The notes beneath the pieces are model-generated. The model ran no database searches, was not told where the DNA came from, and worked only from the letters and a program-made list of their open reading frames with translations. Both the position numbers and the translations under genes were made by a program. From positions 128,970 to 192,969 of the forward strand of contig JAXMOL010000007.1 of the NCBI GenBank assembly GCA_034669905.1: a stretch of DNA of 64,000 nt. The letters run 5' to 3'. This DNA is from Candidatus Hydrogenedentota bacterium. Lineage in GTDB: Bacteria; Hydrogenedentota; Hydrogenedentia; Hydrogenedentales; JAEUWI01. Positions 48,179-64,000 of this stretch are shown here, piece by piece; the first letter of the stretch is position 1, and each line of letters begins with the position of its first letter.

Positions 48179-49315
48179 ATGTCCATACGCCGTTTTCTTG
48201 TTACCATCACCCTGCTCGCCCTTTGCGCCGTCGGGACCGCCCGCGCAGACGAAGCCCTCACCCAGGCGGAGGAACAACGGACCGATGCCTATGCCCTCCA
48301 GCTGGAAGACTATCTGAGTGAATTGCTGGTGGAGGGCTATGATGCCCGGGCCGACGCCGCCTGGAACCGGGACTACACCAGCGAGGCGGCCTTCCTCCAG
48401 AGCGTCGCACCCAACCGGGAGCGGTGGCGTGACCTCCTCAGTCCCTTGCCCCTGGAGGCAACCGGCCCGCTGGAATCGACCCCCTACCAACCCCTCGCCG
48501 AGCTACAGGCCCAATGGTTGCGCGTGCCCCTCGGCGGACTCTACGCCGAGGCCCTACTCGTGGTGCCCACCACGGGCGAAGGCCCCTTCCCCCTCGTCAT
48601 CGCCCAGCACGGCATCGGCAGCTACCCCGAACTCATCTTTGGCCTCAACGACAAGAGCGGCAACTACCACGCCTATGGCAGCGAGCTGGTGAAAGCCGGC
48701 TTTGCCGTCCTCGCGCCCCTGAACCTCCGGAGCATGGCCCGGCGCAACCGCGTCGAACGGCTTTGCCGCCTCGCCGACACCACCCTGCCCGGCATTGAAT
48801 TCACCCGTGTGCAGCGCCTCCTCGACGAAGTGCTTCAGGACCCCCGCATCGACGCCGACCGCGTGGGCATGTGGGGCCTCTCCCTCGGCGGCCTGGCCAC
48901 CATGTTTTGGACGCCCCTCGAACCCCGCATCAAGGCCAGCGTAGTCGCCGGCTGGTTTAACCACCGCCGCAACAAAATGGTGCACACCGACAAGCGCTAC
49001 TCCTGCTTCCTCGACACCACCGAAGAACACGCCTTCTTTCGCGGTTGGCTCACCGAATTTACCGACCACGACGTGGTCAGCCTTATCTGTCCCCGACCCC
49101 TCCTCATCCAGACCGGAAAGAAAGATGGCATCGCCTGGTGGCCCATGGTGGAAGAAGAGTTCGCCATCGCCAAAACCCACTATGAAAAGCTCGGAATCGC
49201 CGAGCGCGCCGAGCTTGACCTCCAGGATGTGGGACACGAGGCCCACGTGGAAAGCGGCGTACGTTTTCTACGCCACTGGCTGGTCGAAAATTTTACGGCG
49301 TTGGACAAAAAATAG
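48179..49315 (+). CDS. Secreted alpha/beta hydrolase (dienelactone hydrolase/acetylxylan esterase-like)
   Basis: Signal peptide. GLSLGG nucleophile elbow. Confidence 0.72.
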   Translation: MSIRRFLVTITLLALCAVGTARADEALTQAEEQRTDAYALQLEDYLSELLVEGYDARADAAWNRDYTSEAAFLQSVAPNRERWRDLLSPLPLEATGPLESTPYQPLAELQAQWLRVPLGGLYAEALLVVPTTGEGPFPLVIAQHGIGSYPELIFGLNDKSGNYHAYGSELVKAGFAVLAPLNLRSMARRNRVERLCRLADTTLPGIEFTRVQRLLDEVLQDPRIDADRVGMWGLSLGGLATMFWTPLEPRIKASVVAGWFNHRRNKMVHTDKRYSCFLDTTEEHAFFRGWLTEFTDHDVVSLICPRPLLIQTGKKDGIAWWPMVEEEFAIAKTHYEKLGIAERAELDLQDVGHEAHVESGVRFLRHWLVENFTALDKK

Positions 49316-49334
49316 CGATTCCAACTTGACATCA

Positions 49335-49362
49335 CTGCCGATACTTTAATAAACTACGCGTC
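49335..49362 (+). promoter_or_regulatory. putative sigma-70 promoter for the tRNA pair
   Basis: Perfect TTGACA followed by a 15-16 nt spacer and TAATAA. Confidence 0.35.
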
Positions 49363-49367
49363 CCGGT

Positions 49368-49443
<76 letters not shown>

Positions 49444-49460
49444 TTATTTTACCTCTTTGC

Positions 49461-49536
49461 GCTGGAATAGCTCAGTCGGTAGAGCGCTTCACTCGTAATG
49501 AAGAGGTCCGGGGTTCGATTCCCCGTTCCAGCCCCA
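49461..49536 (+). tRNA. tRNA-Thr (CGU)
   Basis: Acceptor GCTGGAA/TTCCAGC. Anticodon loop CTCGTAA. GGTTCGATTCC T-arm. Encoded CCA. Confidence 0.88.
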
Positions 49537-50824
49537 GTAAATGCCTGCCACGAAACGACTTACATAGATAGTTGTTTTGTGGTTTTTATTTGTCTGGCCT
49601 TCGTTATCGCCCCGTTATCTTTGATTTCCGGGATTAGCCCCCTTCCTGAACTATTCCTCGCGGGTGTTTTTGCCATCTTCGACTGCTGACTTGTCTCTCT
49701 ATTCCCGACTGATTCCCTTTCCCTCCTTGGGGTGCCTGAAGGGCTTCATTCCGTCCGCTCCACTTCCTGAGACTTCCCGAGTCGACCGCCACATTCGGCC
49801 ACGAGCCGGGCAGTCATTTACCCTTCCTGGGTCGTCACGGTAGATCGTCGACCACTCCTCCTGCGGTCGTATTGAACGACAGACTATCAATCGCCCGGAT
49901 ACCGACGCAGAGAATCACCATGGCACGACTACCTGGGTCGCCTGTAAGCCCCTACAGTGAAATGTCTTAGGTATGGTTGTTTAGGTCGAGAAAACGCGTT
50001 ACGGGGCATCCTGGGGCTTCTGAGAGGGTGTGAGTTCCATTGTCAGGCGGTCTATTGCTGCGGGATTGTCTCGGGCACTTGGGTTGTGTGCTCTTGCACA
50101 TCTGCCGGAACGGATTGATGGCCCTGAAGTGGAACATGCATTTCGGAAACGTTCCTTCTTGGCCTGGACAACGCCTGGGCCCCGGAATTCATCCCAGAGA
50201 GCCTCCGTCCACAGGCCCGAACTGCCCCATGTTGCCCGTTTTTCACTGGCTGCGTGCCCCAAATGCCCGTAATTACCCTGATTTTTCGTTCCAGAGACTC
50301 CGATTTCCTTCCTGCACGTCCAATGGCACGCTTTGCCATCCTTCGAAGGGCTCAAACGGGGGTGGAGAGGAAGGCGAACCAACACAAACCGACATTTCTG
50401 AGAGAAAGGAAGCTCGCTACGCTCACGCAAGATTGGTCCAACGGGACGCTGCGGACTGGCTGCGCCAATCCTCGCTTTAGGAGATCAACCTACCGCTGCG
50501 GCACGTCTCCGCTTCGCTGCGACACGCCTCGCCTTCGGCAGGGTTAAAAGGTGTCAACAAGTTGACCGGGGGTAGGGGGGGCAGCTGCGCTTACCGGCAT
50601 AGTCAGCACCTGGATTACAAAATCTGGCAATTTTTAAGATGGGGTTTGCTGCTCGGGGTCTTCCAGTACGGAAACAGTGTGCGCACACGGGGAGTCCGTG
50701 TGCGCTCAAAGTAGCCACACCTTCCACTCCTCCTGTGGCATTCCGGCTGCGTTGACAGTCTGGGGCGGAACCCTTATCATGGCGCGATATTCTTGATTCA
50801 GGTTACGACGTAAAGGGGGAATCG

Positions 50825-51592
50825 ATGAGCGACCACAGCGAAGCACCAACAAACGAGGAACACAGTCCGTGGTTTACACAACTCTGGGTTGTCTTGGTCA
50901 TTATCGCTGTCGTCCTATTTATTCAGTGGGGTGCATGGTGTTGGATTGAGGGGCGATATCCAACAGGCGAAGAACGTGCATTCTTTGGGGATATGTTCGG
51001 GGCCGTGAACACGCTGTTCTCGGGGCTTGCCTTCTCCATTCTTGCTTGGACCATGCTCTTGCAGCGGGAAGAACTGAAGCTCCAGCGTCGTGAGCTCCAG
51101 GAAAATCGCACCGAGTTGAAACGGACGGCAGATTCCCAACGCGACATGTTGAAAATCGCAAAACAGGAACAGGCAGACCGAGAGGCCCGAGAGTACAGGG
51201 CGGCCACACTACTCTTAAGTCGTTGGAAGAGAGATGGCAATACGCTCAATAGCGATGGCGGCTTCGAGAGCTGGCGTTTTTCCGCAACGAACCTCGGCGA
51301 GGTAGTGTCCAACGTCGAACTCTCGATGGTCAGTATGTCCGGAGTTGGGAACTATGAATTCGATTGTGACCTGATAGTACCGAAAGGGGGGAAATTGGAC
51401 CTGTTGATTTGGGTGGAGCACAGCAACTCTTCGAAAGGGATTGAGAATTGGCTCTCACTGGAGTTTTTGATTAACTACGTGGATGGCAATGGCCGCAATC
51501 GGCAGCAAAAGTACGTATTGAATACTGGAGAAGAATCAATATCCTGTACACATCTGGGAATTGATGAAGAAGAAGACGTCTTTTCCGGGTAA
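50825..51592 (+). CDS. hypothetical 2-TM coiled-coil membrane protein (paralog A)
   Basis: TM1, then GDMFGAVNTLFSGLAFSIL TM2, then a coiled coil and a C-terminal beta-rich domain. About 50% GC. Confidence 0.6.
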   Translation: MSDHSEAPTNEEHSPWFTQLWVVLVIIAVVLFIQWGAWCWIEGRYPTGEERAFFGDMFGAVNTLFSGLAFSILAWTMLLQREELKLQRRELQENRTELKRTADSQRDMLKIAKQEQADREAREYRAATLLLSRWKRDGNTLNSDGGFESWRFSATNLGEVVSNVELSMVSMSGVGNYEFDCDLIVPKGGKLDLLIWVEHSNSSKGIENWLSLEFLINYVDGNGRNRQQKYVLNTGEESISCTHLGIDEEEDVFSG

Positions 51593-51660
51593 CACCCAGC
51601 TTGTGAAAGCTCTAGAGAAGACGTTGAAACAACGTTTCCGACCAAGGGGAAGAATTAACT

Positions 51661-52362
51661 ATGAAATCGAATGGGCAGCATGAGGGATTCACGCTAACCT
51701 CCAAAAAATTGGACGGATACATCGCAGCAATTGTTACGATTTGGCTCGTCGCCACGATTGGAATACCGGTCTTTTCCTGGTTGTCGCCAGACATTGAGCT
51801 TGGAGATTTCGCGTTGCTGGGGGATAGTCTTGGCACCATTAACGCCTTTTTCTCTGCGCTGGCCGTGATTGTGGTGGTGCTGAGCCTTCGACTTCAACAA
51901 AGGGAGATCGAAGAGACCTTGGCGTTGATGCGCGCCGAGCGTTCGGAAGAGAAGGACCGCCAGTTTCGTGCGGCAACACCAATCTTGATCTCCGGGAACT
52001 TTAGACATTTGAGTGAAACGGGAGGTGGTTCCGCAATGCACTGCCTGTTGACCAATAATGGCCAGACAATATTTGATCCGACGATGACCGTTTCGAACGC
52101 CGAGGACCTAGAGCATATATCGGTAGAAACCAAGGCAGATACGATCTTGCCTAACAATTCCCATATCCAGGTTATCGTAAAGCCGATGGTAGCGTCTCAA
52201 AGCCTTCCGAAACACCTCACGATTTGTTTGACCTTGCAATGTTTTGATATCGATGGGCGCAAGCGAACGCTGCACTTTGAAGGTCGGCCCGTCGTTACGG
52301 AAAAGCTGAAGCTGACTGCCTACGATTTTCTTCCTGACTGGGGTGGTGATCGAAGCGCTTAG
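51661..52362 (+). CDS. hypothetical 2-TM coiled-coil membrane protein (paralog B)
   Basis: Same architecture and shared motifs (GDSLGTINAFFSALAV, LQQREIEE, RQFRAAT) as paralog A. Confidence 0.6.
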   Translation: MKSNGQHEGFTLTSKKLDGYIAAIVTIWLVATIGIPVFSWLSPDIELGDFALLGDSLGTINAFFSALAVIVVVLSLRLQQREIEETLALMRAERSEEKDRQFRAATPILISGNFRHLSETGGGSAMHCLLTNNGQTIFDPTMTVSNAEDLEHISVETKADTILPNNSHIQVIVKPMVASQSLPKHLTICLTLQCFDIDGRKRTLHFEGRPVVTEKLKLTAYDFLPDWGGDRSA

Positions 52363-52593
52363 TCCCCATGTAAACGACCAATCCACGGGCGTAAGCAGGG
52401 GCTATCGGTGGCTGTCTTTTCCCCCGCAGGCGATGGTATCATCGCAGGCGGTTTTTATATTCGGTTGGCCGGTGTCTTTCTGGCATGTTTGTATCGGGTG
52501 AGGCGAGGGTGAGGGTGTGTGCAAGGCCTGTGCCTCTTGCGTGGGGTGGATACCGGCGGCGTGTCGGGTGTGGGCCGGTTTTTGGGAGAGCGC

Positions 52594-54147
52594 ATGAATA
52601 CGAATGGTAATGAAATTGAATCCCGCCTGTGGGCGGCGGCGGATGAGCTGCGGGCGAATTCGAAGCTGAAGTCGTCGGAGTATGCCGCCCCGGTGTTGGG
52701 GCTGGTCTTCCTCCGCTTTGCAGACCACAAGTTCCAGGTGGCGGCGAAGGAATTGGAAGGCCAAGGCGGCGGACGGCGCAAGATTGGCCCGACGGATTAT
52801 CAGGCTCAGGGCGTGCTCTATCTGCCCGAGGCGGCCCGCTTTTCCACCCTCATCCAGATGCCCGAAGGCGGCAACATCGGCGCGGCCATCAACGACGCCA
52901 TGCGCGCCATTGAGACGGAGAATTCCGACCTCAAAGATGTCCTCCCCAAGACCTACAACCGCTTTGAGAACACCCTCCTCAAAGAACTCCTCAAGACCAT
53001 GAACTCCATCCCCATGGACATCCAGGGGGACGCCTTCGGTAAGATTTATGAGTATTTCCTGGGCCACTTCGCCATGAGCGAGGGCCAGAAGGGCGGCGAG
53101 TTCTTCACGCCCACGGCCATCGTCCAGTTGATTGTCGCCATCATCGAGCCCTTCCACGGGCGCATCTACGACCCCGCCTGCGGCTCCGGCGGCATGTTTG
53201 TCCAGTGCGCACGCTTCGTCACCGAGCACCAGCAGAACCCCAGCGCGGAATTGAGCGTCTTCGGCCAGGAAAAGACGGACGAAACCGTCCGCCTCGGCAA
53301 GATGAACCTCGCCGTCCACGGCCTCAGCGGCGACATCCGCGAGGGCAACACCTACTACGAAGACCTCCACCAGGCCCCCGGCAAGTTCGACTTCGTCATG
53401 GCCAATCCCCCGTTCAACGTGGACCGGGTGGACAAAGACCGCCTTAAGGACGACCCCCGCTTCCCCTTTGGTATGCCGCGCACGGACAATGCCAACTACC
53501 TCTGGATTCAGATGTTCTACAGTGCCCTGAGCGCCACGGGCCGGGCGGGCTTTGTCATGGCCAATTCCGCCTCCGATGCGCGCGGTTCCGAGCTGGACAT
53601 CCGCCAGCAGTTGATCCAGGCCCGCGCCGTCGATGTGATGGTAGCCGTGGGCTCAAATTTCTTCTACACCGTCACCCTGCCCTGCACCCTGTGGTTCTTC
53701 GACAAGGGCAAGGCGAAGACGCCCCGCGCCGACCAGGTCCTCTTCCTCGATGCCCGCCACCTCTACCGGCAGATCGACCGCGCCCACCGCGACTGGACAC
53801 CCGACCAAATCGAATACCTCGCCAACATCGCCCGCCTCTATCGCGGCGAGGCCGTGGAAAACCTCCACGGCGGCGCCGACTTGTTGGAAGAGCACTTTGG
53901 CAAAAATCCGAAATACACCGACGTGCCCGGCCTCTGTAAGGTCGCCACGCTGGACGAAATCGAGGCCCAGGGCTGGAGCCTCAACCCCGGTCGCTACGTG
54001 GGCGTCACCGCCCGTGAGGAGGACGACTTCGACTTTCTGGAGCGCCTGGAGGAGCAGAACGAGGAGCTGGAACTTCTAAACGTCGAGGCGCGGGAACTGG
54101 AAGAGCGGATCGCGGAAAATGTGGTGCAGTTGTTGGAGGCGGACTGA
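52594..54147 (+). CDS. hsdM: Type I restriction-modification methyltransferase subunit
   Basis: HsdM_N-like start ([13 protein letters not shown]). N6-MTase NPPF motif (MANPPFN). The ATG at 52594 with a GGGAGAG Shine-Dalgarno is preferred over the track ATG at 52519. Confidence 0.9.
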
Positions 54148-55970
54148 TGACGAGAGAAGTCCAATGGACACGTAAAACGGTGCTTGACTTGCTAGAAAAC
54201 GTTATCGATTACCGTGGAAGGACGCCACCAAAATCGGATACTGGCATACCATGTCTCTCAGCCGCCAACGTCAAGGGGGGCGTCGTCACAATAAAGGACA
54301 AGTTTGTTTCCCAAGAAGTATACGAGAAATGGACAACGAGGGGTTATGTTCGTCCGGGAGATGTTTTAATAACGACTGAAGCCCCGGTAGCTGAGGTCGC
54401 TCTGCTACCTGGGGATCAGACTTATCTCATTACCCGTCGAGTTATGGCCCTCCAAGTCAACCGTTCTGTGGCAGACAACAAGTTTCTCATGTACAGTCTG
54501 CTGCTGGACGATAACAAGAAACAGCTTGAGGGACTCTCCCACGGAGCCACGGTGCCAAGGTTATTCAAGGAAGACATCTTGGACTTCAAGTTACTGGTTC
54601 CGCCCCTGGCGACGCAGCGGAAGATCGCGGCGGTCCTCTCGGCCTACGACGACTTGATCGAGAACAACCTGCGGCGGATCAAGATTCTGGAGGCGATGGC
54701 GCAGAACCTCTACCGCGAGTGGTTCGTCAAGTTCCGCTTCCCCGGCCACCAGCACGCCCGCTTCGTGGACTCCCCCCTGGGGCCCATTCCCGAGGGCTGG
54801 GAGGTGAAGACGCTGGGGGAAATCGCGACTATAACTATGGGCCTTTCCCCGAAAGGTGATACCTATAACAACGAAGGCGACGGTACGCCGTTGGTAAATG
54901 GTCCAGTTGAATTCGGCGAACGATTTACGAAACGGGTCAAATGGACAACTTCACCAAAGAAACTTTGTAGTGAAGGTGACCTTGTTGTTTGTGTAAGAGG
55001 ATCGACAACGGGAAAATACGTAAAGAGCGATGGCGTGTATTGTTTGGGTCGTGGTGTTTGCGGACTAAGCAGTGAATATCAGTGTTTCCTAGACCAACTC
55101 TTCGAGAGCGAATTGTATACTCTCCTCGGCATGACAAGTGGTTCTACGTTTCCGAGCTGGACCGGACCACAATTAAAATCTCATAAGGTGCTTGTCCCTC
55201 ATGTAAATTTGCGTGCAGAATTCGACAAAGCAATTCAACCTATGAACGCAGCGGTCTTCAAATACACGCGGAAAAATGCGGTCCTCCGCCAAACCCGCGA
55301 TCTCCTCTTGCCCAAGCTCATCTCTGGCGAACTGGACGTATCCGAGCTGAACATCACCGTCCCCGAGGAGCTGGCCGCCAGCCCCGCCCCTTTGGAAGAC
55401 ACCGGTAGCCCGGCGCAGGTAACGGCACCCAAAGCGAGCCCCGCCCCCGCCCCGAAGGCCGCCGAGGAACCGGAAGCCTACAGAGAAGGCGACACGGAAG
55501 CCCCCACGGCCCCGCGCCCCATTGAGGACTGGGACACCGACGACGTGATGGCGGCCTTCCGCCAGGCCGCCCGGAAGACGGGCCAGACGGACCGCGCCAC
55601 CCTCCTCAAGGCCGTGTCCCGTGAACTGGGCTATGGCCGACTGGGTCCGAAGATGAAGACCGTATTGAAAGGGCACCTCAAGGCCGCCATCCGCCGTCAC
55701 ATCATCGGCACCGACGGCGGTGCCACGGTGTGGCCCGAAACGGTCACCATGGACGAATTCGAGCGCGACGAGCTCGTGGCCACCTTCCGTTCCGTCATGA
55801 AGAAGGGCCCCCGCTACGACCGGGAGGACATCCACCGCGCCGTCGCCAACTACCTCGGCTTCCGCCGCCTCACCGAAAGCGTAAAAGCCCCCATCAAGTC
55901 CGCCATCAACGGAGCGATAAGGCGGGGTGTGCTGGGTTATGAGGGAGATGTGTTGTGGCGGGAAGAGTGA
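54147..55970 (+). CDS. hsdS: Type I R-M specificity subunit with ~200-aa C-terminal extension
   Basis: Two target-recognition domains flank conserved LPPL..Q..I...L and central repeat helices. Residues from about 405 form a Pro/Ala-rich linker plus a basic helical domain of unknown function. Confidence 0.85.
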   Translation: MTREVQWTRKTVLDLLENVIDYRGRTPPKSDTGIPCLSAANVKGGVVTIKDKFVSQEVYEKWTTRGYVRPGDVLITTEAPVAEVALLPGDQTYLITRRVMALQVNRSVADNKFLMYSLLLDDNKKQLEGLSHGATVPRLFKEDILDFKLLVPPLATQRKIAAVLSAYDDLIENNLRRIKILEAMAQNLYREWFVKFRFPGHQHARFVDSPLGPIPEGWEVKTLGEIATITMGLSPKGDTYNNEGDGTPLVNGPVEFGERFTKRVKWTTSPKKLCSEGDLVVCVRGSTTGKYVKSDGVYCLGRGVCGLSSEYQCFLDQLFESELYTLLGMTSGSTFPSWTGPQLKSHKVLVPHVNLRAEFDKAIQPMNAAVFKYTRKNAVLRQTRDLLLPKLISGELDVSELNITVPEELAASPAPLEDTGSPAQVTAPKASPAPAPKAAEEPEAYREGDTEAPTAPRPIEDWDTDDVMAAFRQAARKTGQTDRATLLKAVSRELGYGRLGPKMKTVLKGHLKAAIRRHIIGTDGGATVWPETVTMDEFERDELVATFRSVMKKGPRYDREDIHRAVANYLGFRRLTESVKAPIKSAINGAIRRGVLGYEGDVLWREE

Positions 55971-56131
55971 TGTGGCGACTCTTGCTCTTTCAATACCTAG
56001 AGCCGTTAGCCAATTAACCCTAGAAATGAGAGTAGAGTTCAATGCTCAAGGGAAAGTGTAAAGAGTCTCGGAGTAGGCTACGTGAAGACACTCCGGATGC
56101 GACAGGCTCAGTTTAGGCCCAAAACGATCTT

Positions 56132-56920
56132 ATGTACGGAGGCACAATGGTTCCATTTGAAGATGACAATACAAAGGCCTATGTTTATCTCTTGCGAATC
56201 GAAATTGCCCTACGAGAGCTTCTTCGAGCTTCGCTCGAATCCGAATTCGGGCAATCCTGGAGAAAAAGGCTCCCTGGCGAACTGTTGAAAAAGATCAAAT
56301 CTTCGCAGTCAGAAGAGCATCGTCCCCAGTTTGATTTCGTCCGTTTGGGGCCGCTCTACTACTTGACATTTGGAGAATTACTTATCCTTCTTAAACAAAA
56401 ATCGGGGCAATCCGTAGCTCAACGTTTGGGTGGAGATGGAATCCTTAAGCAACTAGAATGTGTCTTCTCGCCACGCAATGCGATTTGCCACTCGCGACCT
56501 GTATCGTCGGTAGGGTTACAAGCAATAAGCTTGCTCTATGTTGAGATAGAGACAGCACTTTCAAAGGAGGTCTTGGTCCAGCTCGTATCGCAACCAGATA
56601 CGGGGCTCACTCAAGTCGATGTTGCCAAGGGCCTCGTTCCCGCCCTCAAAAACTTCATGGCCGATTTGCCAAATCTACCGTCCACACTCCCGGTTCCTGA
56701 AGCGTTTGTAACTGCGAAGAATCAGTTCTGGTGGGCGGACGATGAGCTTGCTGGATTCGATCGTTCACGAGTCGAAGCCGTGATTGGCCTGGTTCGTGAC
56801 TACAACAACCTTCCTGTTGGTGTTGGATCTGCTGGAACACGACTCACATTCTGCGAGCGGAATGCCCTCAAAGAACGGATTAAAGACGCAATAGCCGAGT
56901 TGGAGAGTACGACACTATGA
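56132..56920 (+). CDS. Swt1-like HEPN domain protein (predicted RNase)
   Basis: FGQSWRKRLPGELLKKIK...FGELLILLK...LKQLECVFSPRNAICHSRPV matches the Swt1-HEPN layout with an R-x4-H motif. About 48% GC. Confidence 0.6.
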   Translation: MYGGTMVPFEDDNTKAYVYLLRIEIALRELLRASLESEFGQSWRKRLPGELLKKIKSSQSEEHRPQFDFVRLGPLYYLTFGELLILLKQKSGQSVAQRLGGDGILKQLECVFSPRNAICHSRPVSSVGLQAISLLYVEIETALSKEVLVQLVSQPDTGLTQVDVAKGLVPALKNFMADLPNLPSTLPVPEAFVTAKNQFWWADDELAGFDRSRVEAVIGLVRDYNNLPVGVGSAGTRLTFCERNALKERIKDAIAELESTTL

Positions 56921-59196
56921 GTCAGCAAAAAAAACAAAAACTCCCTCCAAACCCATTCAAACTCAAACCAATCAGAAATCTTGAGGACTTGGCAGGGCGT
57001 TCACAGGAGCGAAAGAAGATACGATATTACCTAAATCTTACTGCCTCGGGGGATAGTCCGCACTTGGCCTTGATCGGGCAGAGAGGTGTGGGCAAGACGA
57101 GTTTACTCAACGGGGCAGAGTCTATCGCAAGAGAGTTGAAACTACATCCAGTACGCTTGGACATGAACGAGCTGAAGGCAGAATCTCCAGGGAGGTTTTG
57201 GCAGGACTTGTACCAGGGTTTGGCCTTGTCAATGGCCAAAGTAGGATGTTGGGGTGGTGAGCAGGGAAAACTCTATGGTGAACTCTTAAGAATGATTCAC
57301 TCTCGACAACCAGGAGATATCGAGAATGCAGTAATACAGATTCCGTACCTATTTTCATGCCACCAAGGAGACATAGACAGTTTTGAATGTCCGGATGCTC
57401 TCGTGGTCAACGATATTAATATCTGTTTAACGGAGTTGAAGACTAAAGGGTTTGCCGGCATCGCTTTGCTAATTGATGAAGCCGATTGCTTGGGTAAGAA
57501 CGTTGCGCTAATTCAGATGTTCCGTAATATCTTTCAAGCCGTCGAGGGCTGCTCTCTGGTCCTGGCGGGAACCGAGGCTGTGTTCCCGTCACTATCGGAA
57601 GTTTTTTCGCCGATTCCGCGACAGTTTCATCGAATTGATGTGAAGCCATTTGCCGACATGTCGGATACGATGGAACTAGCTACCAGACCTCTTCGGGAGG
57701 CGGACAGTCGAATTCTTCCAGATTTCGAGTCATGCAAAGAGTTACACGCGCTGTGCGGGGGGGCACCTGATGAAATCCAACTCTATTGCCATCACATGTA
57801 TCGTAGCGTAGAGGATGACTCCTCCGAGTCAATGACTCTGTCGCCACAGGTTTTTCGCGAAGTGCTTTGCGCGTACCGTGCGAACACTCCAGAAAACCTC
57901 GACTCAGTCCTAAACGCAATTGAACGATTGCCGGACAGACTGCTATTTCGCTCAAGGTGGGTGTCACGAAGGGAACTGACGCTTGAAGAGAATATTCAGG
58001 TTACAACGCTAATTGCCGAACTTGATGATAGTGAAGAACTACTAGAGGAAAAAAAGAAGCAAATTTCCGAAGAGATTTCCGAGGGGTATCAAATCCTTTT
58101 TAATGCTGGGATTACCAGTGCTAGCAACCGTATTCGGCTTGCGGGAACCCCCCTAACTTCGGGGTTCTGGAAGTCATTTGTTAAGGCGGAAAGAAATGCG
58201 AAGTGGTCTTGGAACGACAATTCCTTCGCAGAGAACTTGGAACGCATATTTGCTCGTGCGATAAACAAGACCTGCGGACAACTACCTATTATCAATATTC
58301 CCCAAAAGGATGATGCTATCAGGAAATTGGCCAAACTTCGCGAGGGAAAATCTGTCAGTGAGATTGATGATGCTTTTGGGGCGCTCCTATTCACTTGCCT
58401 TATCGCCCGAGAAACCAATGCTACAACGGCTGTTGACTTGGGCCTTGAAATGGAATCTTGCTTCGGTCGCCGAAACTTTGTGGTGCGATTACTTGAGACG
58501 AAGGGAACAAAACTCCAAAAGGACGCGGTCATCCGATGGCTAGATACTCGAAAGTCGATGCTTGACGACTACCGAATCTCTCTATCACTCACACAATTTG
58601 AGCATTGGACAGTTCCTACGAATGAAGAATTGCATAGACTCGGGAGACTTTCGGGACATCAGTTTTTTCTAGACGAATTCGGACCGTCAGAAATGGAGAT
58701 TGCGGTCGATAAGTTTGGGTCTGGAGACGTCCAAGGTTGTATCGATCTGTTCGAACGAATGCTTGCAGACAAGGAAGATCCCCACATCCGAAATAACTTG
58801 GCTTTCTGTCAAATAGTCACCGGGAATATTCAGGATGGACTAGAAAATGCCGACCGAGCACTTCAAGTCGATAATCTTCCACTTTTTGAATTGAATAAGG
58901 GAGTCGCAGAGATCCTTTTGGGCGATTCTGAGTCGGGGCTTGAATCTCTACGTCACGCACTTGAGCGACTCCGTTCGTTAGATGATCCGGACGCTTTCGA
59001 AGCTAGTTACAATATGGTTATTTCGGAGAATGGCGTCGAAGTAAGTTGTCATGAGAATCTGCCTGTTGACGCTGCGCTCCTACTAAATCTCTATCGAATT
59101 GGTGAGCTATCGGAATCAGAACTACAGGAGGAATTGAGCAGAAGGAATCCCGACAGTGTTTCTGATTGGATGGCCATCGTGCTCGGGCCTAAGTAG
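56917..59196 (+). CDS. AAA_16/STAND-type P-loop NTPase with C-terminal TPR-like repeats
   Basis: LAGRSQERKKIRYYL then Walker A GQRGVGKTS. Walker B ALLIDEADCL. C-terminal helical/TPR repeats. 4-nt overlap with the HEPN gene. About 47% GC. Confidence 0.7.
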   Translation: MSQQKKQKLPPNPFKLKPIRNLEDLAGRSQERKKIRYYLNLTASGDSPHLALIGQRGVGKTSLLNGAESIARELKLHPVRLDMNELKAESPGRFWQDLYQGLALSMAKVGCWGGEQGKLYGELLRMIHSRQPGDIENAVIQIPYLFSCHQGDIDSFECPDALVVNDINICLTELKTKGFAGIALLIDEADCLGKNVALIQMFRNIFQAVEGCSLVLAGTEAVFPSLSEVFSPIPRQFHRIDVKPFADMSDTMELATRPLREADSRILPDFESCKELHALCGGAPDEIQLYCHHMYRSVEDDSSESMTLSPQVFREVLCAYRANTPENLDSVLNAIERLPDRLLFRSRWVSRRELTLEENIQVTTLIAELDDSEELLEEKKKQISEEISEGYQILFNAGITSASNRIRLAGTPLTSGFWKSFVKAERNAKWSWNDNSFAENLERIFARAINKTCGQLPIINIPQKDDAIRKLAKLREGKSVSEIDDAFGALLFTCLIARETNATTAVDLGLEMESCFGRRNFVVRLLETKGTKLQKDAVIRWLDTRKSMLDDYRISLSLTQFEHWTVPTNEELHRLGRLSGHQFFLDEFGPSEMEIAVDKFGSGDVQGCIDLFERMLADKEDPHIRNNLAFCQIVTGNIQDGLENADRALQVDNLPLFELNKGVAEILLGDSESGLESLRHALERLRSLDDPDAFEASYNMVISENGVEVSCHENLPVDAALLLNLYRIGELSESELQEELSRRNPDSVSDWMAIVLGPK

Positions 59197-59223
59197 ACAA
59201 ACGATTCAAGGGCAGCATTCAAT

Positions 59224-62200
59224 ATGTCTTATACTTACAGCGAAGACGCCCTGGTGGAACAACCGGCGATTGCCCTGCTCGGGGAACTGGGTTGGGAGAC
59301 GATGAACGCCTATCAGGAGTTTGCCCATGGGGCGAGCGTGCTGGGCCGGGAAACCCGGAATGAAGTCATCCTGACACAACGGTTGCGTCCGGCGTTGGAG
59401 CAGTTAAACCCGGAGTTGCCCCCGGCGGCCATCGATGAAGCCGTGACGGCCCTGCAACGGGACCGCTCGCGCATGAGCCGGGTGGCGGCCAACAAGGAAA
59501 TTTACCACGCCCTCAAGAATGGGGTCCGTGTCACGGTTCCGGACCCCGAGGGGGACGGCGAGATGGTGGCCTTGGTGCGGGTGGTGGACTGGGACATCCC
59601 GGAAAACAATGACTTTCTGCTTTGCTCTCAACTTTGGGTCGCAGGCGAGATGTATACCCGTCGCCCGGACCTCGTGGGCTTCGTCAATGGCCTGCCCCTG
59701 CTCTTTATCGAGCTGAAGGCGGCGCACAAGGGGCTGGAATCGGCCTATAAGGGCAATCTGCGGGATTACAAGGACACTATCCCCCACCTCTTCTGGGCGA
59801 ACGCCCTGATTATCCTTTCCAACGGCAGCGAAAGCCGCCTGGGGAGTGTCTCGGCGGGTTGGGAACACTTTGCCGACTGGAAGAAGATTGGCAGCGAGGA
59901 AGAGACCGCGACGATTTCCCTGGAGACCATGTTGCGGGGAACCTGCGCGCCGGAGCGCTTTCTGGATATTGTGGAGAACTTCACCCTCTTCCAGGATGTG
60001 CCGGGCGGTCAGGTGAAGCTGGTCTCGAAGAACCACCAGTATCTCGGTGTGAACAGCGCCCTGGAAGCCTTGGCGAACGTGCAGGAGCGGGGCGGGCGTC
60101 TGGGCATATTCTGGCACACCCAAGGCAGCGGCAAGAGTGTGTCCATGGTCTTTTTTGCCCAGAAGGTACTCCGCCGGGTTCCCGGCAACTGGACCTTTGT
60201 CGTGGTGACCGACCGCAAGGAACTGGATACCCAGATTTACAAGAATTTCGTCTCGTCGGGCGTGGTCACCGAGGAAGGTGCCCAGGCCACGAGCAGCGCA
60301 GGCTTGCGGCAACTCCTCGCGGAAGACCACCGCTATGTCTTCACCCTGATTCATAAATTTCGGACGGAGCCGGGCACGGCGCACCCCGTGCTCTCTACGC
60401 GTAGCGATATTATCGTCATTGCCGACGAGGCCCACCGGAGCCAATATGACACGATGGCGCTGAACATGCGCACGGCGCTGCCCAATGCCGCCTTTCTGGC
60501 CTTCACCGGCACCCCCCTGATTGTGGGCGAGGAAAAGACGCGGGATGTCTTTGGGGACTATGTCAGCGTCTACGACTTCCGCCAGTCGGTGGAAGACCGG
60601 GCCACGGTTCCGCTGTATTACGAGAATCGCATTCCCGAGCTCCAGTTGGTGAATGAGCATATCAATGAAGACATGGAACGCCTGCTGGAAGACGCGGAGC
60701 TCGACGAGGAGCAGGAGAAGAAGCTGGAGCGGGAGTTTGCGCGGGAATATCACCTGATTACGCGGGACGAGCGTCTGGAGGCCGTGGCCAAGGACCTCGT
60801 GGACCACTTCATTGCGCGGGGATTCCAGGGCAAGGCCATGATGATCTGCATCGACAAGGCCACGGCGGTGCGGATGTATGACAAGGTACAGCGGGCGTGG
60901 GCGGAGCGGCTGGCGGAGGCGGAGGCCGATTTTGACGCGTGGTGTGAGCTGCCCGGCTACGTGATGGGCCCGGAGGAGGAGCCCCCCGAATTGCAGCATG
61001 AGCAGGCGCTGAAGGACCGGATACGTTCGCTCAAGGAGATCGACATGGCGGTGGTGGTGTCGCAGGCCCAGAATGAGATTCGGGATATGAAGGCGAAGGG
61101 GCTGGATATCCTCCCCCACCGGAAGCGCATGGTGGAGGATGACCTGGAAACGAAGTTCAAAGACCCGAAGGATGATCTCCAACTGGTTTTTGTCTGCGCC
61201 ATGTGGATAACGGGCTTTGACGTGCCGAGTTGTTCCACGCTCTATCTGGACAAGCCTATGCGGAACCACACGCTCATGCAGACGATAGCGCGGGCCAACC
61301 GCGTCTTTGCGGGCAAGGTCAACGGGTTGATTGTGGACTATGCGGGGGTGTTCCGAAACCTGGAGAAGGCCCTGGCCATCTATGGCGGAGGTGGTGCCAC
61401 GGAGGGCGGCGAGGACGCAGGTGGTGGGAATCCGGTGGCCGATAAGGGCGTGCTGGTCACGGCGCTGACAGAGGTGATTGCGGAGACCCGCGCCTTGTGC
61501 GAAGAACACGCGGTGGACCTTTTGGCCATCCATGAAGCCGAGGGCTTTGACCGTATCAAGTTAATGGAGGATGCTGTCGAGGCGCTGTTGGTAACTGAAG
61601 CTGTAAAGCGGCGCTACCTGGACCTTTCAAACGGCGTGAAACGGCTCTATAAGGCCATCTTGCCCGATGATTCGGCGGAGGCCTTCGCGGGGGATGTGTT
61701 TGCTATTCAATACGTCGCCGAAAAGATTCGGGCCAAGACCGAAGCGCCGGACATTTCGAGTGTGATGCAGGATGTGGAGGAGCTGCTGGACCAATCCATT
61801 GCCACGGAAGGCTATGTGATTCGCGAAGGCAAGGCGGACTACGGCGAAGAACACTGGATCGACCTGAGCAATGTGGACTTCGACGCGCTTGCTGCCCGGT
61901 TCAAAATCGGGCGCAAGCGAACGATGAGCGAGCAGCTCAAGGTAAGCGTCGCGCAGAAGGTTATCGACATGGTGCGGCAAAACCGGACCCGCATCGATTT
62001 CATGGAGCGTTTCCAGGCGATGATTGATGCCTACAACGCGGGCAGTCTGAATGTCGAAGAATTCTTTAGCCAGTTGGTGGCCTTTGCCCGGAGCCTGGAT
62101 GAGGAAGAACAACGGGGCGTAAGCGAAAACCTGACTGAAGAAGAACTGGTCATCTTTGACCTGTTGACGAAGCCTGCTATTGAGCTGTCGGAAAAGGAAC

Positions 62201-62445
62201 GGGAGAAGGTGCGGTCGGCGGCCCGGGAAATGCTGGAAACGCTCAAGGCGGGCAAGCTGGTCCTTGATTGGCGCAAGCGGCAACAATCACGGGCCGAAGT
62301 ACGCGTGGCCATTGAGACCGTACTGGATGCGCACCTGCCGAGAGCCTACACGCCGGAGCTTTTCGAGCAGAAAGCCACGGAAGTCTTTCAGCACGTCTAC
62401 GAAGCGTACTACGGGGCGGGGCGCGGTGTGTATTTTGGCGCGTAG
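59224..62445 (+). CDS. hsdR: Type I restriction endonuclease subunit
   Basis: HsdR_N (FIELKAAHKG). SF2 helicase motifs (WHTQGSGKS, DEAHRSQ). C-terminal DUF3387-like region. 1073 aa. The 709-aa antisense ORF 59404-61533 is an artefact. Confidence 0.92.
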   Translation: MSYTYSEDALVEQPAIALLGELGWETMNAYQEFAHGASVLGRETRNEVILTQRLRPALEQLNPELPPAAIDEAVTALQRDRSRMSRVAANKEIYHALKNGVRVTVPDPEGDGEMVALVRVVDWDIPENNDFLLCSQLWVAGEMYTRRPDLVGFVNGLPLLFIELKAAHKGLESAYKGNLRDYKDTIPHLFWANALIILSNGSESRLGSVSAGWEHFADWKKIGSEEETATISLETMLRGTCAPERFLDIVENFTLFQDVPGGQVKLVSKNHQYLGVNSALEALANVQERGGRLGIFWHTQGSGKSVSMVFFAQKVLRRVPGNWTFVVVTDRKELDTQIYKNFVSSGVVTEEGAQATSSAGLRQLLAEDHRYVFTLIHKFRTEPGTAHPVLSTRSDIIVIADEAHRSQYDTMALNMRTALPNAAFLAFTGTPLIVGEEKTRDVFGDYVSVYDFRQSVEDRATVPLYYENRIPELQLVNEHINEDMERLLEDAELDEEQEKKLEREFAREYHLITRDERLEAVAKDLVDHFIARGFQGKAMMICIDKATAVRMYDKVQRAWAERLAEAEADFDAWCELPGYVMGPEEEPPELQHEQALKDRIRSLKEIDMAVVVSQAQNEIRDMKAKGLDILPHRKRMVEDDLETKFKDPKDDLQLVFVCAMWITGFDVPSCSTLYLDKPMRNHTLMQTIARANRVFAGKVNGLIVDYAGVFRNLEKALAIYGGGGATEGGEDAGGGNPVADKGVLVTALTEVIAETRALCEEHAVDLLAIHEAEGFDRIKLMEDAVEALLVTEAVKRRYLDLSNGVKRLYKAILPDDSAEAFAGDVFAIQYVAEKIRAKTEAPDISSVMQDVEELLDQSIATEGYVIREGKADYGEEHWIDLSNVDFDALAARFKIGRKRTMSEQLKVSVAQKVIDMVRQNRTRIDFMERFQAMIDAYNAGSLNVEEFFSQLVAFARSLDEEEQRGVSENLTEEELVIFDLLTKPAIELSEKEREKVRSAAREMLETLKAGKLVLDWRKRQQSRAEVRVAIETVLDAHLPRAYTPELFEQKATEVFQHVYEAYYGAGRGVYFGA

Positions 62446-62485
62446 TGGATTGTATAAAGAAAAGAACATTCTGGGAGTTTAGTGC

Positions 62486-62665
62486 GTGTCGATAATTCTG
62501 ATGCTCAATATGAAGGGTGGCGTGGCAAAGACGACCAACGCCGTGGCGATTGCGGAGTGCCTGGCGGACCAAGGGCGAAAGGTGCTGGTGATTGACGCCG
62601 ACCATCAGTGCATGGCGAGTGAGCTCTTAATTGGGGAAGACCGGCTTCTTCGGTGTGAGAAGTGA
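62486..62665 (+). pseudogene. truncated ParA/MinD-like ATPase (N-terminal 59 aa only)
   Basis: Deviant Walker A MKGGVAKTT...VLVIDADHQ followed by an early stop. Confidence 0.5.
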
Positions 62666-63186
62666 AGAGGATCGCTCTGTTTGTGTCATCCGCCTCTACA
62701 CGGGTCAAAACTGCCGATAGTCCCTGCCTGAGAACTGTCCACTGCACTTGAGTAAACCTTATCCGTAAACCTTAGCATTAGTAGTTCAGAGCTTTTCAGG
62801 TATCCGTAGGTAATAGAGAAGGGGGGAAGTGGAGTCGCGTATTTATGTACTTCAAGTGCCATAAGCCTCCGAAACTTGGTCCCCATGGGTTGTCTTGCGG
62901 CTTTTGCGTAGTCTTCAGGTCTTGAGCAAGTAAAACGGTAGCCTATCTAGAGTAATGATTTATCGGAGTTATAAGTCGAGTGGTGAATGCTTGAGAATAT
63001 TTTCAGGACCTTCCCCAATAAATCGTAGTCTTTTTCTGTAAGTTCCTTTCCCCCAGTCACCTACCGGTGTGGAGAAGTGGAACGGGCATTTTTTGGGTAA
63101 TGTTTATAAGATTTGAAGCGGACTCCTCTTTGGGTCAGAATTTGGTTGTCAAAGGCCTAAGTCTAACCCTACCAAGGAGCCCGCCC

Positions 63187-63711
63187 ATGAATAGTAGCAA
63201 GATTGCCTTCAATTTGCGCAAGCGTATCGGTCGTTTTTCGGGTAATGTCTCTAAGAGCCTTTGTTTACCGGCCCAACACTTCGTCGGTGATATGGTTTAC
63301 GGGATTCAGGCGTCGCAGTCGGTGATGCTCTCGGAAGTGGGAAGGGCGTTGGAGGAAGATATCGCGATGATTAAGACGGAGGAGCGTCTTTCACGCAATC
63401 TACAGCGCCCTGACCTGGAAGATACGGTTCAGGACAATGTAATGGCCATGGCAGCAGGGCATATCGGCCAGGACACCCTACTCATTATTGACCCAAGTGA
63501 TATCACCAAAAAGTACGCCAAAAAGATGGAGTATCTGTCGACCGTTCGTGATGGGAGCGCGCACGATTTTGGTCAGGGTTACTGGACGTTGCATATTGTG
63601 GGAACCGACCTGGATTCCAAGAAGATCGTGCCCTTGTATCAACGGTTAAGAAGTGGACCCCGAAAACTGGACAGTGCGTTAAGTGTATCTCCTGACGTAT
63701 TCTTTCAATGA
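63187..63711 (+). mobile_element. IS4-family (IS10-like) transposase N-terminal fragment
   Basis: LLIIDPSDITKK...DGSAHDFGQGYWTLH matches the IS10 LVVDWSDIREK first-Asp region. The rest of the DDE domain is absent. Confidence 0.5.
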
Positions 63712-63724
63712 AGGAGATAGAAAT

Positions 63725-64000
63725 ATGCGACGTAAACGACGGAATCATGCCCCGGCATTTAAGGCAAAAGTAGCGTTGGCGGCTTTGTCCGAAGAAGGCA
63801 CCTTGGCAGAGTTGGCGGAACGCTTTGATGTACACCCGAACCAGGTGAAGCAGTGGAAACAGCAGCTTTCTGAGCAAGCGGTTGGTGTCTTTGACTCGAC
63901 GGATGACACTCGTCGGTTGAACGAGGCCGACACGGAAAAGCTCCACGCCAAGATTGGACAGCTGACGCTTGAAAATGATTTTTTAGCCAAAGCGCTCGGG
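63725..64000 (+). mobile_element. IS3-family transposase orfA (HTH), partial at window end
   Basis: AAGGAG Shine-Dalgarno. Encodes [48 protein letters not shown]...[15 protein letters not shown] (Transposase_8/IS3 OrfA pattern). Confidence 0.7.

Follow-up and report, generated by a model that had tools for sequence, protein, structure and literature searches.

What is the role of two genes of low G+C content (GC) that lie between the specificity and restriction genes of a Type I restriction-modification (R-M) locus? The question is raised by a stretch of 64,000 nucleotides (nt) from a Candidatus Hydrogenedentota bacterium (assembly GCA_034669905.1, contig JAXMOL010000007.1, positions 128,970 to 192,969), referred to here as the window, in which positions 52519–62445 hold five co-directional genes: hsdM, hsdS, gene A (encoding a putative HEPN ribonuclease, RNase), gene B (encoding an AAA+ ATPase) and hsdR. 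The original prediction, made from the letters of the window, had placed two translationally coupled genes with an ATGA overlap between hsdS and hsdR, an arrangement confirmed by the open reading frames (ORFs), the overlap itself and the Pfam assignments of the flanking genes. The analysis presented here indicates that A and B probably form an autonomous abortive-infection cassette of a sensor ATPase and a HEPN effector, which is exchanged horizontally and, in this genome, is nested in a Type I R-M locus. The support for a role in defence is contextual: the pair is nested in two Type I R-M families, it is mobile, and gene A has relatives among the Abi proteins.

The association of A with B is no chance arrangement, since each gene has about 170–180 clusters of homologues, their order is fixed and the overlap between them is kept in 39 of 44 related loci, where it takes the form A/GTGA. 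The clusters, defined at 90% identity among 5.8 billion, are near-equal in number for the two genes and nearly all metagenomic, and all are unnamed. A set of 52 further loci with a gene A relative was compiled from genome and metagenome scans and from look-ups. B lies directly downstream of A in 48 of these, the other four being contig ends or marginal matches, and A precedes B in every locus that extends far enough. The pair is spread patchily over at least seven phyla; the hosts named in the records include members of the Planctomycetota, the Verrucomicrobiota (Akkermansia, Didemnitutus, Verrucomicrobiaceae), the Hydrogenedentota and the Actinomycetota, together with Nitrosospira, Nitrospira and Ignavibacteria. 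Literature searches found no description of this pairing, and the HEPN systems of DefensePredictor differ from it. Several copies look degraded, which suggests that the cassette is sometimes inactivated: gene B of locus L010 (8789–11072) is broken into ORFs of 385 and 382 residues, and A and/or B are truncated in L043 (8001–10479), L015 (1032–3083) and L044.

Gene A had been started at 56132 in the original prediction. Its true start is almost certainly five codons downstream, at 56147, because the homologues are 257 residues long and a GGAGG stands 4 nt upstream of that ATG. The encoded protein gave no match in NCBIfam or in Pfam (the latter down to E≤0.1). In PADLOC it matched PDC-M34B, a candidate family (E 1.4e-6, residues 15–130), whose models match all 27 of the homologues aligned (44–69% identity; best E 9.9e-9); for gene A the match is to the HEPN domain only (profile positions 60–177 of 192). 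Invariant in the 27 sequences are R17, I18, E19, R23 and E24 of the first helix, P109, R110, N111, H115 and R117, and the mid-protein motif LGPLYYL(TFGEL). The signature RNxxxHxR is found in all 123 full-length homologues retrieved, and in the structure model R110-x4-H115 sits in helix 107–114. The conservation of R-x4-H among homologues, on which the original prediction had made its HEPN assignment depend, is therefore borne out. Its more specific label of a Swt1-type HEPN is not supported in that form, as the Swt1-like profile (PF18731) left the window protein unmatched at E≤0.1 and Abi_2 appears nearer.

Which HEPN proteins gene A is related to was addressed with more sensitive comparisons. 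Foldseek searches of the structure model against the PDB returned nothing below E 0.36, and a PDB sequence search with the gene A profile returned noise only (E>0.5). Below threshold, Abi_2 (8 of 27 homologues, best E 0.017) and HEPN_Swt1 (2 of 27, best E 0.051) were the two most frequent Pfam families; the curated threshold of Abi_2 (PF07751) was not reached, and at E≤0.1 the window protein did not match it. The match of the gene A profile to a single AbiF sequence was weak (E 0.063). When the HEPN-only profile was aligned by hhalign with a profile built from 11 annotated Abi family proteins, including AbiF of the C. difficile phage phiC2, the match was significant over 102 columns (P=4.5e-4). 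In this alignment RIEIALRE falls on the Abi 'iEialR' helix, LTFGEL on 'ltFGxL' and PRNAICH on 'vRNxCAH', and the Rx4H of gene A is placed on R202/H207 of phiC2 AbiF. These two residues align structurally with R210/H215, which are essential in PbAbiF (PMC12373285). Judged by these alignments, residues 1–148 belong to the Abi2/Swt1 clade of Anantharaman et al. 2013 (PMC3710099), as a divergent HEPN domain that keeps the predicted catalytic motif intact; by the tests applied, a position nearer to Abi_2/AbiD/AbiF than to Swt1 appears the better-supported one. Residues 149–257 make up a family-specific helical domain with the motifs QFWW..LAGF and YN.LP.GVG, for which no relatives were detected. 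A search with the HEPN-only profile did not reach beyond the same ~180 clusters.

Gene B encodes the larger and more composite protein. Pfam places AAA_16 (4e-6, under the gathering score), AAA_22 and ATPase_2 over residues 34–287 and gives weak TPR matches; among 28 homologues AAA_16 is matched in all, along with several TPR families. The gene B family profile also matches TPR proteins of the PDB over residues 595–690 (E 2e-5). Walker A is present in all 107 full-length homologues. T219 and a P-x-P-R235-Q-F segment just before the fifth strand are invariant, so that a Thr occupies the sensor-1 position and a conserved Arg (PxPRQF) stands where AAA+ proteins have their arginine finger. A GRxxE motif precedes the P-loop and a CGGxP motif follows it, in the lid. 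The features of ORC/Cdc6- and ATPase_2-type AAA+ proteins are thus all found in B: Walker A and B, a polar sensor-1, an Arg before beta5 and a helical lid. The three motifs quoted in the original prediction (RNAICH in A, GQRGVGKTS and LLIDEADCL in B) are all present in the translations.

When B was compared with solved structures, the highest values were obtained for 2qen (18.4) and 2fna (17.0), both archaeal 'Walker-type ATPases', followed by Cdc6/ORC (15–17), TnsC/MuB (about 14–16), MalT (14.8), ZAR1 (13.9), BrxC (13.5), Avs5 (11.9) and RdrA (11.9). Since the archaeal ATPase_2 and ORC/Cdc6 structures outrank MalT, the NLRs and Avs5, gene B is counted among the AAA+ ATPases that resemble ORC/Cdc6 and ATPase_2, on the border between AAA+ and STAND proteins; membership of STAND in the strict sense is not demonstrated. 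The ORC/Cdc6-like AAA_16 P-loop and the TPR region of the original prediction are upheld by Pfam, by the PDB profile matches and by this ranking; the STAND label that it attached to them is not established. An exhaustive profile search recovered 396 representatives at E≤1e-30 and 2159 at E≤1e-3. Fusion of an N-terminal HEPN domain to close relatives of B was ruled out, because almost all of the best 150 start at residue ~1–13 and the largest N-terminal offset is ~80 residues, too short in every case for a HEPN domain.

Conservation is unevenly distributed along B. Column identity is 0.61 in the ATPase core, 0.29 in the alpha/beta domain (residues 453–585), where Pfam gave nothing above noise, and 0.30–0.36 in the TPR and C-terminal parts. 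A conserved core with a variable tail is the pattern expected of a switch that carries a fast-evolving recognition surface, and B may be such a protein. A separate observation concerns residues 277–295 (window ~57745–57801), a cluster surrounding the CGGxP lid motif in which H277, C280, G282, P284, E286, Q288, Y290, C291, H292, M294 and Y295 are invariant; the H/C/C/H spacing could reflect a metal site or mere packing of the lid.

The genomic context of the pair is of two kinds. The order hsdS-A-B-hsdR with the same hsd family is found in the window and in 13 other loci, whose HsdR proteins are 52–56% identical to that of the window. This hsdS was found in 9 of the 33 loci with at least 700 bp upstream, this hsdR in 9 of the 22 with at least 700 bp downstream, and spacers of ~20–30 nt flank the pair in the nested loci. 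In L024 (2768–8284) the pair directly follows a gene for a 795-aa EcoEI-type HsdR (ResIII + EcoEI_R_C) of an unrelated Type I family, and its position relative to hsdR differs from that in the hsdS-A-B-hsdR arrangement. Altogether, nesting in Type I R-M accounts for about a third to 40% of the informative loci; the rest are solo. Among them are copies that adjoin ATP synthase and a DUF2130 gene (L006), a Fic/AbiEi-like gene (L007), smpB (L036), rve transposases (L054, Nitrospira sp. Nam80) or terminase and Mu-gp27-like genes (L009), or lie amid plain housekeeping genes (L003, L011). Cassettes nested in Type I R-M, BREX, DISARM and Hma systems are often defences themselves, and the prediction of defence function from nesting in R-M has been validated (Payne et al., 10.1101/2024.01.29.577857). 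L058 (plasmid pT75-VIM, CP113227.1 72604–74112) offers an independent case of such nesting for a HEPN of the Abi_2 clade: a canonical Abi_2 gene lies between the methyltransferase and S-subunit genes of a Type I system.

The base composition of the pair is foreign to its neighbours. GC is 0.490 in gene A and 0.474 in gene B (GC at third codon positions, GC3, 0.47), compared with 0.621 in hsdM (GC3 0.84) and 0.595 in hsdR (GC3 0.76); a difference in this direction had been noted in the original prediction (about 47% against about 58–60%). The low-GC block spans exactly the interval from the hsdS stop to the hsdR start, spacer included. In nine other nested loci the pair lies 5–15 GC points under its hsd neighbours, and most solo copies are also below their flanks. 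Much of the history of the nested copies is co-inheritance, because the divergences of HsdR and B correlate (r=0.82) and their trees are broadly congruent; B is more diverged than HsdR in every nested pair not involving the window. The exchange of the cassette is exemplified by L008 (3800–11400) and L027 (1–7568), in which hsdS and hsdR share 90–99% nucleotide identity and the A-B segment 61–80%, with a sharp drop at the end of hsdS and at the start of hsdR. Near-identical hsd flanks, diverged A-B segments and sharp transitions are the signature of cassette replacement, in which recombination in the hsd genes on either side brought in a diverged allele. The neighbour-joining tree of B intermingles solo and nested copies, with solo ones on its deepest branches. 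A single ancient nesting as the whole story was ruled out by the interspersed tree, the second hsdR family and the cassette swap. The cassette is an independently exchanging unit for which the hsdS-hsdR junction appears to serve as a docking site. The 'later insertion' of the original prediction was thus right in spirit, in that the pair is exchanged separately, as its GC and the L008/L027 comparison indicate.

How such a cassette would act can be outlined, any specific step (trigger, target RNA, oligomer) being much less certain than the reading as a whole. HEPN RNases are generally dimeric, with a composite active site, and are held off by partners, RNAs or modifications (10.64898/2026.02.22.705581, PMC3710099). 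A and B would be made in fixed proportion and would form a complex in which B keeps the RNase off; that the complex is stoichiometric is suggested by the strict coupling of the two genes. B, in which every residue required to bind and hydrolyse ATP is combined with a variable tail, would serve as sensor and switch, and A as effector. A phage-derived cue may be bound by the variable C-terminal half of B (alpha/beta domain and TPRs) and would lead to nucleotide-dependent oligomerisation of B, and this assembly would bring together or release the HEPN domains to give the composite dimeric active site. Cellular and/or phage RNA (tRNA or mRNA) would then be cut and the infected cell would arrest before phage release. 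Where it is nested, the cassette would back up restriction as a second line and would not depend on the R-M enzyme.

Several points count against this autonomous abortive-infection reading. For every member of the family we infer RNase activity, toxicity, interaction of A with B and phage protection. No PADLOC model matches gene B or its homologues. Gene A relatives were found neither in a scan of IMG/VR nor among plasmids (tblastn), gene B relatives were not found in GenBank phages (tblastn), and these searches gave no hints of a trigger; plasmids yielded distant ATPase-domain relatives of B only, with other neighbours. About 60% of the informative loci are without neighbouring defence genes. 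The original prediction had counted occurrence of the pair outside defence islands as a refutation, and many loci do show it; such occurrence is read here as a sign of an autonomous cassette and not as counter-evidence to defence.

A more far-reaching joint reading can be entertained tentatively, and we regard it as unlikely. A-B would be the founding example of a 'split' NLR-like architecture, in which an ORC/ATPase_2-type sensor recruits a free HEPN RNase in trans; the contact may involve an invariant peptide at the N-terminus of B (LPPNPY..P) and the family-specific domain with QFWW/LAGF at the C-terminus of A. In the nested copies the sensor would also monitor the Type I enzyme, through its state or through the products of its DNA translocation. 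In that case restriction and abortive infection would be linked by mechanism and not just by location.

It is improbable that the pair acts as a guard of the PrrC kind, silenced by HsdMSR and triggered when a phage anti-restriction factor disables restriction. In its own Type I locus prrC lies between hsdS and hsdR, the position occupied by A and B in the window, as the original prediction had pointed out. The co-directional operon has no terminator-like site at any gene junction, including the hsdS-A spacer (consensus scan), its NTPase plus HEPN content is analogous to that of PrrC/RloC (PMC3710099), and the divergences of hsdR and gene B correlate. The distribution tells the other way: ~60% of the informative loci are without any hsd genes, and solo copies occupy the deepest branches of the ATPase tree. 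An obligatory fit of the pair to one HsdMSR is unlikely, because the cassette has been swapped within a near-identical hsd backbone and also lies beside an unrelated HsdR family.

A similarly small probability is given to a toxin-antitoxin or addiction module, in which the ATPase would neutralise a HEPN toxin and so stabilise the island or the R-M locus, with no sensing of phage. HEPN proteins are common among the toxins of such modules, the tight translational coupling of A and B resembles toxin-antitoxin operons, and the contexts are mobile (tRNA, smpB, transposases). An ATPase of 759 residues with a fast-evolving alpha/beta and TPR tail is, however, far more elaborate than a neutralising antitoxin, and it varies as a sensor would be expected to. 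In type II modules the toxin gene does not typically stand first, as it does in A-B, and neither a small labile antitoxin nor a non-coding RNA was found: the spacers of nested loci measure ~20–30 nt and Rfam gave nothing. An AbiF-type non-coding RNA antitoxin for gene A was ruled out on the same grounds. In the window, at 49000–64000, Rfam found no families other than two tRNAs.

Very improbable is an integrated R-M machine similar to BREX or Hma, in which B would scan as an ATPase of the BrxC/DUF499 type in partnership with HsdM and HsdR, and the HEPN protein would be a back-up effector. The Hma/Type-1 BR systems do join a HEPN-DUF499 ATPase, an N6-methyltransferase and a helicase-nuclease (PMC12839542, PMC3710099), and weak BrxC_BrxD matches in Pfam occur in 18 of the 28 gene B homologues, in the P-loop region only. 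In gene B itself the BrxC_BrxD match (E 8e-4, below the cut-off) is limited to the P-loop (residues 27–83) with no full-length match, the similarity to BrxC ranks under that to ATPase_2 and ORC, no DUF499 match was found, and the solo loci and cassette swapping oppose an obligate cooperation with hsd genes. Least probable of all is a role outside conflict, in which an RNA-processing enzyme with the ATPase as its chaperone would serve housekeeping or regulation: housekeeping genes do flank many solo loci, but the pair is rare (~180 clusters among 5.8 billion), is scattered patchily over seven or more phyla, has GC foreign to its neighbours, is exchanged as a cassette, recurs within R-M loci and has Abi proteins as the closest relatives of A.

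The features of the locus are collected in Table 1; 27 nt separate the gene B stop from the hsdR start.

Table 1 Features of the hsd locus and of the A-B pair, in window positions.
Feature	Position	Strand	Remarks
hsdM (Type I methyltransferase)	52519–54147	+	Pfam N6_Mtase 1.1e-84, HsdM_N 5e-22
hsdS (specificity subunit, 607 aa)	54147–55970	+	Pfam Methylase_S; PADLOC Specificity_I 6e-69, residues 8–400
Low-GC spacer (0.477), 176 nt, compositionally part of the cassette	55971–56146	+	GGAGG at 56138–56142
Gene A, 257 aa, HEPN + helical C-terminal domain	56147–56920	+	Longest ORF 56132–56920
Predicted catalytic R110-N-A-I-C-H115 (Rx4H) in the HEPN domain of gene A	56474–56491	+	
ATGA stop/start overlap, A/B translational coupling	56917–56920	+	4-nt overlap kept in 39 of 44 related loci
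Gene B, 759 aa, AAA+ ATPase + helical region + alpha/beta domain + TPR tail	56917–59196	+	
Walker A G54-QRGVGKT-S62 of gene B	57076–57102	+	G54, G57, G59, K60, S62 invariant
Walker B D187-E188 (LLIDEADCL) of gene B	57475–57480	+	D187, E188 invariant
Alpha/beta domain of gene B, aa 453–585, candidate sensor surface	58273–58671	+	Most variable part
TPR region of gene B, aa ~586–692	58672–58992	+	Profile match to BBS4 TPR and designed TPRs
hsdR (Type I restriction subunit)	59224–62445	+	Pfam HSDR_N, SWI2_SNF2, T1RH-like_C

The block that holds the whole hsd locus looks like a genomic island inserted beside tRNA genes. The genes for tRNA-Phe(GAA) and tRNA-Thr(CGU) lie just upstream of it, at 49368–49536, and past them (49250–52400) GC falls from ~0.63–0.67 to ~0.47–0.57. 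Directly upstream of hsdM are two adjacent paralogous ORFs (50825–51592 and 51661–52362; 255 and 233 residues; GC ~0.51), each with an N-terminal hydrophobic segment and a coiled-coil-like stretch. They gave only weak DUF6082 matches (E 0.012 and 0.0011) and nothing in PADLOC, and may be another island-borne module. HsdS carries a C-terminal extension of ~200 residues (~400–607, window 55347–55970) with a high GC of 0.67 and a Pro/Ala-rich linker, in which two tandem repeats of ~65 residues can be seen by eye (…LLKAVSRELGYGRLG… / …IHRAVANYLGFRRLT…). Pfam found nothing in the extension, its sole match was a weak one in NCBIfam to the C-terminus of the anti-phage protein ProA (E 0.013), and it is absent from the hsdS of other nested loci. 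After hsdR (62750–64000) GC goes down again to 0.45–0.50; a 214-aa ORF at 63067–63711, with no Pfam match, is possibly a mobile-element gene at the edge of the island.

Among known systems, the pair resembles PrrC/RloC in that an NTPase and a HEPN-type RNase lie between hsdS and hsdR, where an abortive back-up to restriction is expected. In PrrC and RloC both parts belong to one polypeptide, an ABC-type ATPase being followed by the HEPN domain (PMC3710099). By contrast, A-B consists of two proteins, with the HEPN component first, an AAA+/ORC-like ATPase with TPRs and a HEPN of the Abi_2/Swt1 clade, and the cassette also occurs without R-M. No PADLOC model for PrrC or RloC matched A or B. The pair would work like PrrC/RloC and is not a member of that group, being AAA+ and not ABC, split, and unmatched by the models.

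The Abi_2/AbiD/AbiF proteins are the closest relatives of gene A in sequence and structure and share the same three motifs, including RNxxxH; Abi_2 proteins too are found nested in R-M operons (PMC3710099). Gene A differs from Abi_2 in that it is without the ~80-aa N-terminal region and has a C-terminal domain of its own. AbiF is a single protein silenced by a non-coding RNA, whereas A-B leaves no room for such an RNA and the partner of A is a large ATPase.

Fusions of Swt1-clade HEPN domains to STAND ATPases with TPRs, and to DUF499 ATPases in R-M-like operons, were catalogued in 2013 (PMC3710099). The HEPN-DUF499 protein HmaC of the Hma/Type-1 BR systems and the HEPN-STAND-TPR(-S1) proteins, for example Npun_F6454, contain the same module types as A-B and are likewise associated with methyltransferase and helicase-nuclease genes (PMC3710099, PMC12839542). 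They are fusions, whereas A-B is a split pair with no DUF499 match. With Avs and other NLR-like STAND proteins the pair would share its proposed logic, namely an NTPase switch, a C-terminal repeat sensor and a nuclease activated by oligomerisation; the effector is an N-terminal fusion in Avs and a separate gene in A-B, and no PADLOC Avs model matched. RADAR, which consists of the RdrA ATPase and the RdrB deaminase, sets a precedent in that the effector of an ATPase_2-type protein is encoded by a separate gene. RADAR differs from A-B in that the predicted effector of the latter is a HEPN RNase and not an adenosine deaminase, and no RdrA match was found with PADLOC.

The two-gene PADLOC candidate PDC-M34, defined by guilt-by-embedding as nested in defence systems (Payne et al., 10.1101/2024.01.29.577857), is similar to A-B in its HEPN component only, gene A corresponding to PDC-M34B. 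Gene B and its homologues match no PDC-M34A model, and in PDC-M34 the B gene lies downstream of its partner. The original prediction did not recognise the pairing as a named system. This holds in so far as no PADLOC v2 system covers the pair; the combination of HEPN with an ATPase is on record (PMC3710099), and the theme is that of PrrC/RloC. An RNase with an NTPase switch nested in R-M is accordingly a well-known principle, of which the A-B pair is an apparently unnamed instance.

The L008/L027 comparison provides a clean example of the exchange of a putative defence cassette within a conserved Type I R-M scaffold and supports the view that second-line modules dock interchangeably at the hsdS-hsdR junction. 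Should the pair protect against phage, an unnamed two-gene system would be added to the catalogue of defences, from lineages that RefSeq-based screens have barely sampled (metagenome-assembled genomes of Verrucomicrobiota, Planctomycetota, Nitrospirota, Ignavibacteria and Hydrogenedentota). PrrC, HmaC and HEPN-STAND are HEPN-NTPase fusions, and A-B would then be their natural 'split' counterpart, in which sensor and RNase could be separated for study, mixed and titrated.

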